From contig OZ024740.1 in the NCBI GenBank assembly GCA_964016885.1, forward strand, positions 196,354,001 to 196,418,000: a stretch of DNA of 64,000 nt. Direction: 5' to 3'. The stretch is from Eledone cirrhosa (lineage: Eukaryota). The notes beneath the pieces were generated by a model, which searched no databases, was not told the origin of the DNA, and saw nothing but the letters and a program-made list of their open reading frames with translations. Below are positions 29,201-32,200 of this stretch, in pieces; position 1 is the first letter of the stretch; each line of letters opens with the position of its first letter. The translations under genes and the position numbers were made by a program.

Positions 29201-32200
29201 ATATATACATATATATATACATATATATACATATATATATATGTATATATATATCTATATATACATATATATGTATATATGTATATATATATATATACAT
29301 ATATACATATATATATACATATATATATACATATATATACATATATATATACATATATATACATATATATATATGTATATATATATATATATATACATAT
29401 ATATGTATATATGTATATATATATATATACATATATATATATGTATATATATATATACATATATATATATATATATGTATATATATATATATACATATGT
29501 ATATATATATATATATATGCATATATATATATATATGTATATATATATATATATATATATGCATATATATATATATGTATATATATATATATATATATGC
29601 ATATATATATGTATATATATATATATGTATATATATATATATATATGCATATATATATGTATATATATATATATATATATATATATATATATATATATAT
29701 ATGCATATATATATATATATGTATATATATATATATATATATGTATATATATATATATATATATATGTATATATATATGCATATATATATATATATGCAT
29801 ATATATATGTATATATATATATATATATATATATATATGCATATATATATGTATATATATATATATATATATGCATATATATATGTATATATATATATAT
29901 ATATATGCATATATATATGTATATATATATATATATATATATATATGCATATATATATGTATATATATATATATATATATATATATATGCATATATATAT
30001 GTATATATATATATATATGTATATATATATATATATATATATATATGTATATATATATATATATATATATGTATATATATATATATATATATATGTATAT
30101 ATATATATATATATATATATATATATATATATATATATATATATGCATATATATATATATATATATATATATATATATGCATATATATATATATATATAT
30201 ACATATATATATATATATGCATATATATATATATATATATATATGTATATATATATATATATATATGTATATATATATATATATTAGAATTGGAGCTCTG
30301 AAATAGCAATATATAGGGATGTAAATATAATGTATTTTGCAATACACTTTATGCTTAATTAAAAGCATTTTGAAGACCGTAAGCTATTGTTTTAAAGTAG
30401 TGACAAATTCATTTACTTTGATCTCAGCAAACAGGGGAGATAAGCCGACAAGTCTTGTTTCGCTTTGGTTGAAGCTTATCAAGGCTAACTACCCCTCCTG
30501 TCTACCGAGATCACTGATGTTATATTCTTATAGAAATTTAGTAAATAATCAGGAGCTGATTATGCAGAGCGGTTGTTGGTCAGGCAGAAACTAAAAATTA
30601 GAATTGGAGCTCTGAAATAGCAATATATATATGGATGTATATATAATGTATTTTGCAATACACTTTATGCTTAATTAAAAGCATTTTGAAGACCGTAAGC
30701 TATTGTTTTAAAGTAGTGACAAATTCATTTACTTTGATCTCAGCAAACAGGGGAGATATATACATATATATATATATATATGTATATATATATGAATATA
30801 TATATATATATGTATATATATATATATATATGTATATATATATATATATGTATATATATGTATATGTATATGTATATATATATGTATATATATATATATA
30901 TATGTATATAAGTTTTAATATAGATGAGATTCTACAGGACTAGAACTGTTTCATTCTTTAGAAATCATCAGGAATCTGATATGTATATATATATATATAT
31001 ATATATATATATATATATATATATATATATATATATATATATATATATATATATACATATATATATATATATATATGTATGTGCAATAAGTAGCAGCAAG
31101 TGCCCACAGAATACTAGCTCATTCCATTGCACAGATGGTTCTATAGAAATAGTGGACACCTTCCGTTACTTGGGTGACAAAATCAGCAGTGGGGGAGGGT
31201 GCTCTGAAAGTACAGTAGCTAGAGCCAGAACGGGATGGAAAAAGTTCAGAGAGCTTATACCACTATTGGCCGCTAAAGGGTTCTCTCTAAAAATGAAAGG
31301 CAGGCTGTATGATGCCTGCATACGAACAGCAATGTTACATGGCAGTGAGACCTGGGCATCGTGTGCAGAGGATATACGCAGACTGAAAAGGAACGAAGCT
31401 TGCATGCTCCGCTGGATGTGTAATAGTAATATACATGAACGGCAAAGCATAAACGAACTAAGGGAAAAATTAGAAATAAGAGGGATCAGATGTTGTTTAC
31501 TCGAGAGAAGACTACGTTGGTATGGTCACGTGATGCGCACGAAAGACGACAGCTGTATAAAAAAGTGCAGGGCAATAAAAATAGACGGTAGCCACGGAGT
31601 AGGCAGACATAGAAAAACCTGGGACGACTTGATAAATTCCGACCTCACACACTTACACCTCTCCAAGAAAATGTCACTGGACCGAGATCTTTGGCGCTAC
31701 ACAGTAATACAGAAGACCCGCCTTACCTAAGTACAAAGTGAAACCTACTACAGTCAGTAGGCACCTCTAACAAAAATACACCCCCGAACCACTACCCCCA
31801 CCCCATCCACACCACCCCTTTCAATGTAAAGTTATGTTGGTACAACAACATCCAGTCCAAAACAAATGAGGTCGTGTAGGTGTCACGACAAAAAACACAC
31901 AGTCCACGCTGTAATGTGGCTGTGTAGGCAACACGGTAAAAACCTCCCAGTCCCACACTGTAAATGTGGTTGGTGTTAGGAAGGGCATCCAGCCGTAGAA
32001 AATCCGCCAGACAGTCCTATGCGAGCAAGACAACCACTCTTGCCTCAAGTGGGAAAACTCCCGTCCAAACCCATGCAAGCGTGGAAGATGGACGTTAAAC
32101 GATGATGATGACGATATATATATATATATATATATATATATATATATATATATATATATATACCTGATCACCTATAGATCGGGGGAACACACAAGCCAGG

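Follow-up and report, generated by a model that had tools for sequence, protein, structure and literature searches.

Paired short and long ends in a hammerhead retrozyme family of Eledone cirrhosa point to Penelope-like mobilisation

An intron of the RMC1 gene of Eledone cirrhosa holds about one and a half units of a short repeat with a hammerhead ribozyme motif, and the 5' end of this repeat (30758 on the minus strand) lies only 4 nt beyond the predicted cut. How did the repeat reach this place, and does its boundary record a self-cleaved RNA? The window in which it lies is a stretch of 64,000 nucleotides (contig OZ024740.1, forward-strand positions 196,354,001 to 196,418,000), and all coordinates are window positions unless another locus is named. 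The enzyme that moves retrozymes in animals has yet to be established, and the insertion anatomy described here points to Penelope machinery. A Penelope link of non-LTR retrozymes has been proposed before (PMC7229834, PMC7761336, bioRxiv 10.64898/2026.07.22.740005; these and other papers are cited from the portions of their text available). In the available text of the preprint the link is argued from co-occurrence and homology only, and in that of the 2020 review (PMC7761336) retrozyme repeats are said to show no motif indicating a partner.

The hammerhead copy in the RMC1 intron

The insertion occupies 30283–30758 on the minus strand (476 bp, or 1.5 units at a period of 314 bp) and is a single-armed, 5'-truncated copy of a repeat that we call retrozyme family A. 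It is flanked by (TA)n tracts, the target array on its 3' side (26494–30284) and a second tract on its 5' side (30756–30910). Within such (TA)n a target-site duplication would not stand out. The array on the 3' side is interrupted, measures 3.8 kb, lies within the RMC1 intron and has become the site of at least three hammerhead-bearing insertions; a further terminal-repeat-like end on the plus strand (26250–26493), with a hammerhead core at 26315, stops at its left edge. On the minus strand, RMC1_C exons are found at 11926–12096, where the Pfam RMC1_C domain starts downstream of the host intron, and beyond, and minus-strand RMC1_N exons lie just beyond the opposite end of the window. The gene was identified as RMC1 by these family searches; eight candidate RMC1 exon frames tested singly gave no Pfam match. 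Because the minus-strand exons flank 30283–30758 on either side, the copy is intronic and in the sense orientation of RMC1, as the first-pass annotation had claimed. The period, the number of units and the position of the 5' end were likewise as that annotation had given them.

The same annotation described a complete minus-strand type I hammerhead with a UUGAUAA core, and each detail of sequence in that description is correct. The motif, with its extended stem I, spans 30419–30513 and is the sole complete ribozyme of the window copy. Core positions 3–9 read UUGAUAA (30476–30482), with U3 at 30482 and A8 at 30477; stem II is GCUU/AAGC (30475–30462), stem III is the palindrome ACAAG-A-CUUGU (30448–30458), and the predicted GUC cleavage site (30446–30447) has C17 at 30447 and the cut between 30447 and 30446. 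Stem I consists of AGCC/GGCU, followed by a GGGGUA/UAUCUC helix and a distal helix of 17 bp, whose three irregular pairs are, as claimed, G-U on this strand (30506-30426, 30504-30428 and 30502-30430). The motif thus has the 3-8 pair in the core, the GAAA, the NUH triplet and the three helices of a type I hammerhead. Its minus-strand fold has a z of -5.9, none of 200 shuffles being as good, against -2.0 for the plus strand. The Rfam model Hammerhead_HH9 matches 30426–30496 on the minus strand with 25 bits (E = 0.0017) and does not reach its gathering score of 52; the expectation that such a variant would escape standard detection was thereby borne out, at least for the curated threshold. Chance falls far short of explaining the hammerhead and the repeat, but not the 4-nt boundary distance.

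In the predicted monomer fold (-43.6 kcal/mol versus -39.5 for the active fold) the core is paired to the 3' strand of stem III, and stem III itself has a probability of 0.002. A predicted double hammerhead, in which the palindromic stem III pairs between two ribozymes, reaches -90.1 kcal/mol versus -87.2 for two monomers (2 x -43.6), a small margin that comes from secondary structure alone. This predicted preference for the dimer matches the dimer-dependent retrozymes described in the accessible text of PMC7229834. A point against it is that, in Xenopus, only one of nine predicted dimers cleaved (bioRxiv 10.64898/2026.07.22.740005). Having kept a single L arm (defined below) with one complete ribozyme, the window copy would not release a monomer by itself, and it is probably a near-neutral intronic dead end.

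Family A, its sister families and the U3-A8 core

Two non-overlapping exact patterns for the family A ribozyme matched 659 and 519 times, with no match to the reversed controls, which sets a lower bound of at least 1,178 ribozyme copies in the genome. A pattern for the 3' end matched 1,721 times, and the whole unit found 1,323 candidate places, the full-length matches among the 40 scored being 95–98% identical. The modal period of the family is 316 (63 of 108 spacings), against 314 in the window copy. The longest sense frame of the unit has 34–38 codons; an antisense frame of 87 codons has at most 25 after its Met and is absent from both sister families, and no ORF with reverse transcriptase (RT) and GIY-YIG domains lies within the unit. 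Family A is young, non-coding and recently mobile. At the level of the family, short tandem units each carry a type I hammerhead, which is what marks a non-LTR retrozyme, and long tandem arrays are found on two other contigs (L379, G000:C8 32.19–32.24 Mb; L378, G000:C2 207.69 Mb). The L378 array opens with an inverted insertion of two arms and shows a higher-order pattern of 304/316 units. Further hammerhead-bearing or related repeats, some of them degenerate, sit beside other family A copies (L233 2088–2300, minus strand; L229 1196–1494; L226; L034 6085–6191).

The variant core is fixed in the family: U3 is present in 132 of 134 aligned loci and A8 in 132 of 132, and the first 100 pattern matches listed are all U3-A8. 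Variation among copies is 0.79% at core positions and 0.96% at other non-polymorphic positions; so small a difference counsels against leaning heavily on conservation, and is expected of copies that decay after insertion. At one locus (L187) the core change A9G is found in both arms, in all four of their ribozymes.

Two sister families have a C3-G8 core. The first, A', is 79% identical to A and has 2,657 candidates, 40 of them scored, and the canonical core; it reads CUGAGGA in 33 of 35 ribozymes at 30 loci and differs from A by paired changes in stems I, II and III and in the distal helix. Its loci (L262–L291) have two 3' ends identical to those of family A. The second, family B, is about 65% identical, with a 310-bp unit and the core CUGAUGA. 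It was found through a pattern search, which gave 13,671 ribozyme matches with at most one mismatch; a DNA search with family B gave no candidates. Family B aligns across the whole monomer (score 253 versus 120 +/- 11 for shuffles) and has a hairpin of different sequence at the position equivalent to 30331–30346. It forms long arrays, for example at L035 4300–5898, and its stem II opens with a U-U mismatch. The stem pairs of the three families were tabulated from motif anchors, because a MAFFT alignment set the cores out of register. Within family A itself, stem III carries the double change ACAUG/CAUGU in 519 copies, beside ACAAG/CUUGU.

Since the C3-G8 sister families show compensatory changes in stems I to III, the fold looks selected, and the U3-A8 core is likely a lineage-specific compensatory switch. 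These data uphold what was first suggested from the window copy, a retrozyme-like family that spread by retrotransposition, forms tandem arrays and conserves its U3-A8 hammerhead; many copies, tandem arrays and paired stem changes were found. The core is not novel, as U3-A8 hammerheads are already in print: PMC4209133 reports about 1,300 minimal ones in Schistosoma, and PMC3088659 describes natural U3-A8 cores, with in vitro activity cited there from another study. Family A shares the covariation of the core and the palindromic stem III with these natural cores and with the Schistosoma Cercyon minimal hammerheads (PMC4209133). It differs from Cercyon in its 4-bp stem II, full stem III and long stem I, and in carrying the ribozyme in tandem units, whereas Cercyon mostly forms single motifs. 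Taken alone, the U3-A8 core and a lone intronic copy are of modest interest, and the pair A/A' offers a natural experiment on the switch from C3-G8 to U3-A8.

Insertion anatomy and the Penelope-like elements

Of 141 loci (60 discovery, 46 pattern-selected and 35 BLAST-selected), 139 yielded the 244 arms mapped here; arms shorter than 58 nt, below 87% identity or touching the edge of a locus, and one duplicated copy, were left out. The 3' ends fall at two sites. The short (S) terminus is an internal TA tract, at 30309–30316 in the window copy, with a hairpin just upstream of it (30331–30346), and the long (L) terminus lies 26 nt past that tract, at the end of an optional 'tail' (30283–30308) which the window copy includes. 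Next to the L ends a (TA)n tract comes in 109 of 117 cases, and next to the S ends in 86 of 113. In 102 of the 139 insertions there are two inverted arms, joined head to head, and their ends are paired: 91 have one S and one L end, one has two L ends, none has two S ends, and 10 are unclassified. One arm per fixed 3' site is thus the rule in 91 of 92 classifiable insertions (p ~1e-26 against free choice), and the held-out set gives the same result separately (52 S+L, no L+L, no S+S). Two features by which Penelope mobilisation is recognised are therefore present in the family, a tail at one end only (91 of 92) and partial tandems with an inverted 5'-truncated arm (102 of 139 loci). Arms reach 6.5 units in length. 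The two arms of one insertion differ at 10 of 852 diagnostic calls across 78 loci, compared with 46.6% for random pairs, which indicates that both derive from one RNA or one source. One locus that shares a neighbour with the window copy (L069) was considered for a common history with it and rejected, being an independent two-armed insertion.

This anatomy, and not the core, is the new result, and such Penelope-type insertion signatures, which the first-pass annotation had missed, are more informative than either the 4-nt boundary or U3-A8. Outside subscription journals, Repbase and supplements, we found no literature on family A, on tandem retrozymes with a U3-A8 core or on S/L-paired retrozyme insertions in the text available; the supplements of bioRxiv 10.64898/2026.07.22.740005 contain consensus data on families that might affect this novelty. 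Family A resembles the metazoan non-LTR retrozymes of PMC7229834 and that preprint in its non-coding tandem unit, within the range of 150–450 bp, and in the single type I hammerhead that each unit carries; a low GC content (33%), a strongly folded monomer and coexisting Penelope-like elements are further points in common. It departs from them, as far as the accessible text of these papers describes them, in its fixed U3-A8, in its (TA)n targeting and in that most insertions are inverted and two-armed with paired S and L ends. Linear and circular monomers are known for metazoan non-LTR retrozymes, and for family A a circular RNA is predicted.

In its target and its insertion structure family A is like the Penelope elements of the Hydra clade, for which PMC8557442 describes (TA)n targeting, inverted 5'-truncated arms and a tail that is often at one end only; partial tandems and a hammerhead near the 3' terminus are shared as well. 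A young autonomous element of this kind, PLE-A, is present in the same genome (1,509 candidates, 40 scored). It encodes 719 aa with the motifs RWK, DKT, CxCx5C, CxxC and CxH as well as GIY-YIG at the C terminus, targets (TA)n and carries a hammerhead, and by its motifs would belong to the Hydra clade. Searched against Pfam and PDB it gave no match, and its Atlas neighbours include GIY-YIG and RVT_1 clusters. PLE-A has two 3' ends at (TA)n, 77 nt apart (compared with the 26-nt tail of family A), and across 19 loci all nine insertions with both ends seen have one short and one long end; in family B the same pairing holds in two of two. Another Hydra-type element, PLE-D, has its full form at L243 1200–3035 (plus strand). 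In the window, a 5'-truncated end of its terminal repeat adjoins the 5' tract (30911–30977, minus strand, sense to RMC1); this end has a C3-G8 hammerhead and 8,740 exact matches, and the PLE-D ribozyme core and stem II are nearly identical to those of family B.

Unlike these elements, family A has no ORF, and its terminal sequence shows no significant homology to the terminal repeats of either one tested: for PLE-A shuffles were as good in 27 of 300 and 13 of 200 cases, and for PLE-D in 70 of 200. These alignments to PLE-A and PLE-D revealed no autonomous element whose terminal repeat is homologous to family A. Four of 34 single arms adjoin a Penelope-type ORF head to head (L031 5179, L034 4460, L229 2036 and L238 2353), and each ORF is of a different family. 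At L229 the frame stays open over 459 aa and matches GIY-YIG and RT; the clade labels of two of the four are assigned from motifs, and one alone is backed by Pfam. We considered these chimeric junctions as proof of a single partner and rejected them as such, as four ORF families are involved and the excess is not significant (Hydra-type ORFs at 2 of 34 single arms versus 3 of 239 in the background, p = 0.12).

Taken together, the insertions suggest that family A is a non-LTR retrozyme which Penelope-like machinery mobilises in trans, a reading to which we assign a probability of roughly 0.85. The window copy would then be a truncated hammerhead-repeat copy that was likely put into (TA)n by the RT and endonuclease of a Penelope-like element, with a circular monomer as its probable source. 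As to the partner, the balance tilts towards a member of the Hydra clade. In vitro, the anole Poseidon element PAc uses two adjacent start sites and extends both target strands; a point against our reading is that its insertion did not need ribozyme cleavage (PMC11167929). Family A resembles PAc in having two adjacent internal start sites that bound the tail, an AT-rich target and extension on both strands; PAc is autonomous and was studied in vitro, whereas the evidence for family A comes from the genomic copies of an RNA that is non-autonomous, in which one site is used per arm. Because the start sites, the target and candidate ORF-bearing enzymes are defined, the link between retrozymes and Penelope is testable in the published assay.

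The RNA template and competing explanations

Our working model for the mechanism is tentative. Arrays holding two or more ribozymes would be transcribed, adjacent ribozymes would pair through the palindromic stem III and excise monomers, and these would be ligated into circles. A Penelope-type protein, perhaps as a dimer, would nick both (TA)n strands and prime cDNA from two fixed sites, S and L, on one and the same circular RNA, rolling around it in both arms; each cDNA would be of random length, often more than one turn of the unit, and the two would join head to head by microhomology.

Several observations bear on the template. The cut site is read through seamlessly by 213 of the 244 arms, and no shortened junction occurs among the 126 that span it; monomers differ by 0.9% within an arm and by 3.7% between loci; and ten variants private to a locus are common to all units in six of 128 loci (chance ~0.015). 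Both partial units of the window copy likewise share a variant absent from the 60 discovery loci. Of the two long arrays, one is unlike dispersed copies in its stem III form and its distance of 6.6%, and the other alternates 304 and 316 units in a pattern found in no dispersed arm. Uniform junctions, similarity within arms, private variants and arrays unlike the dispersed copies together favour a monomer bottleneck, of which a circular monomer RNA would be the simplest form, and we consider it likely that such a circle was the template. Two points go against it. One arm (L237 1800–3326) has one 316-nt unit followed by three 304-nt units in which part of stem I is missing, a mixture unexplained by a single circle without slippage, and long DNA-level arrays could supply homogeneous multimers of similar look.

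The same Penelope machinery might instead have copied an uncut multimeric transcript of such arrays, with no circle and with the ribozyme serving for end-processing only. This would account equally well for the arms that read through the cut site and for the mixed units of L237; long arrays do exist, and unprocessed RNA was the dominant substrate of the anole element in vitro (PMC11167929). We nevertheless find it unlikely: the two long arrays examined do not resemble masters of the dispersed copies, variants private to a locus yet present in all its units need a monomer bottleneck and, without regeneration, 5' truncation would be expected to shorten arrays every generation. It is improbable that the unit is a pseudo-LTR of an autonomous Penelope element and the window copy its 5'-truncated remnant. 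Target, tail and inverted structure are indeed those of Penelope elements, and the adjoining PLE-D fragment is exactly such a remnant, but the unit loops back on itself in 139 loci with up to 6.5 units per arm, and the ORFs joined to family A arms face away from the 5' junction and come from four families.

The first-pass annotation had taken the boundary near the cut as the mark of a self-cleaved template, and a linear RNA whose 5' end set that boundary would indeed place it there. The mapped arms contradict this: 12 of the 244 5' ends lie within 10 nt of the cut versus 17.2 expected, most arms read through the site, and the window copy itself reads through one. In its favour is a small, non-significant excess in the narrowest windows (7 versus 4.3 expected, p = 0.14; 10 versus 6.0, p = 0.09). 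The linear template is very improbable and largely refuted. The junction (30756–30758) has TAT microhomology with the (TA)n target, so that the true 5' break perhaps lies up to 3 nt further in, and the distance of 4 nt most plausibly reflects a truncation at a chance position, fixed by microhomology to TA. The discovery set suggested that 5' ends cluster at the start sites S and L (13 versus 3.7 expected); the 140 held-out arms (5 versus 5.1) led us to reject this. That family A is ordinary satellite DNA spread by recombination, its hammerhead a matter of chance or a vestige, agrees with the DNA-level amplification in two arrays and is refuted for the dispersed copies by their 5' truncation and fixed 3' ends, by G-U pairs that are strand-specific and by the covariation seen between families, which leaves it a negligible likelihood.

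If a Penelope dimer does prime both target strands on a circle, the insertions of family A would directly record how Penelope machinery mobilises retrozyme circles, and the Penelope tail would reflect one start site per target strand.
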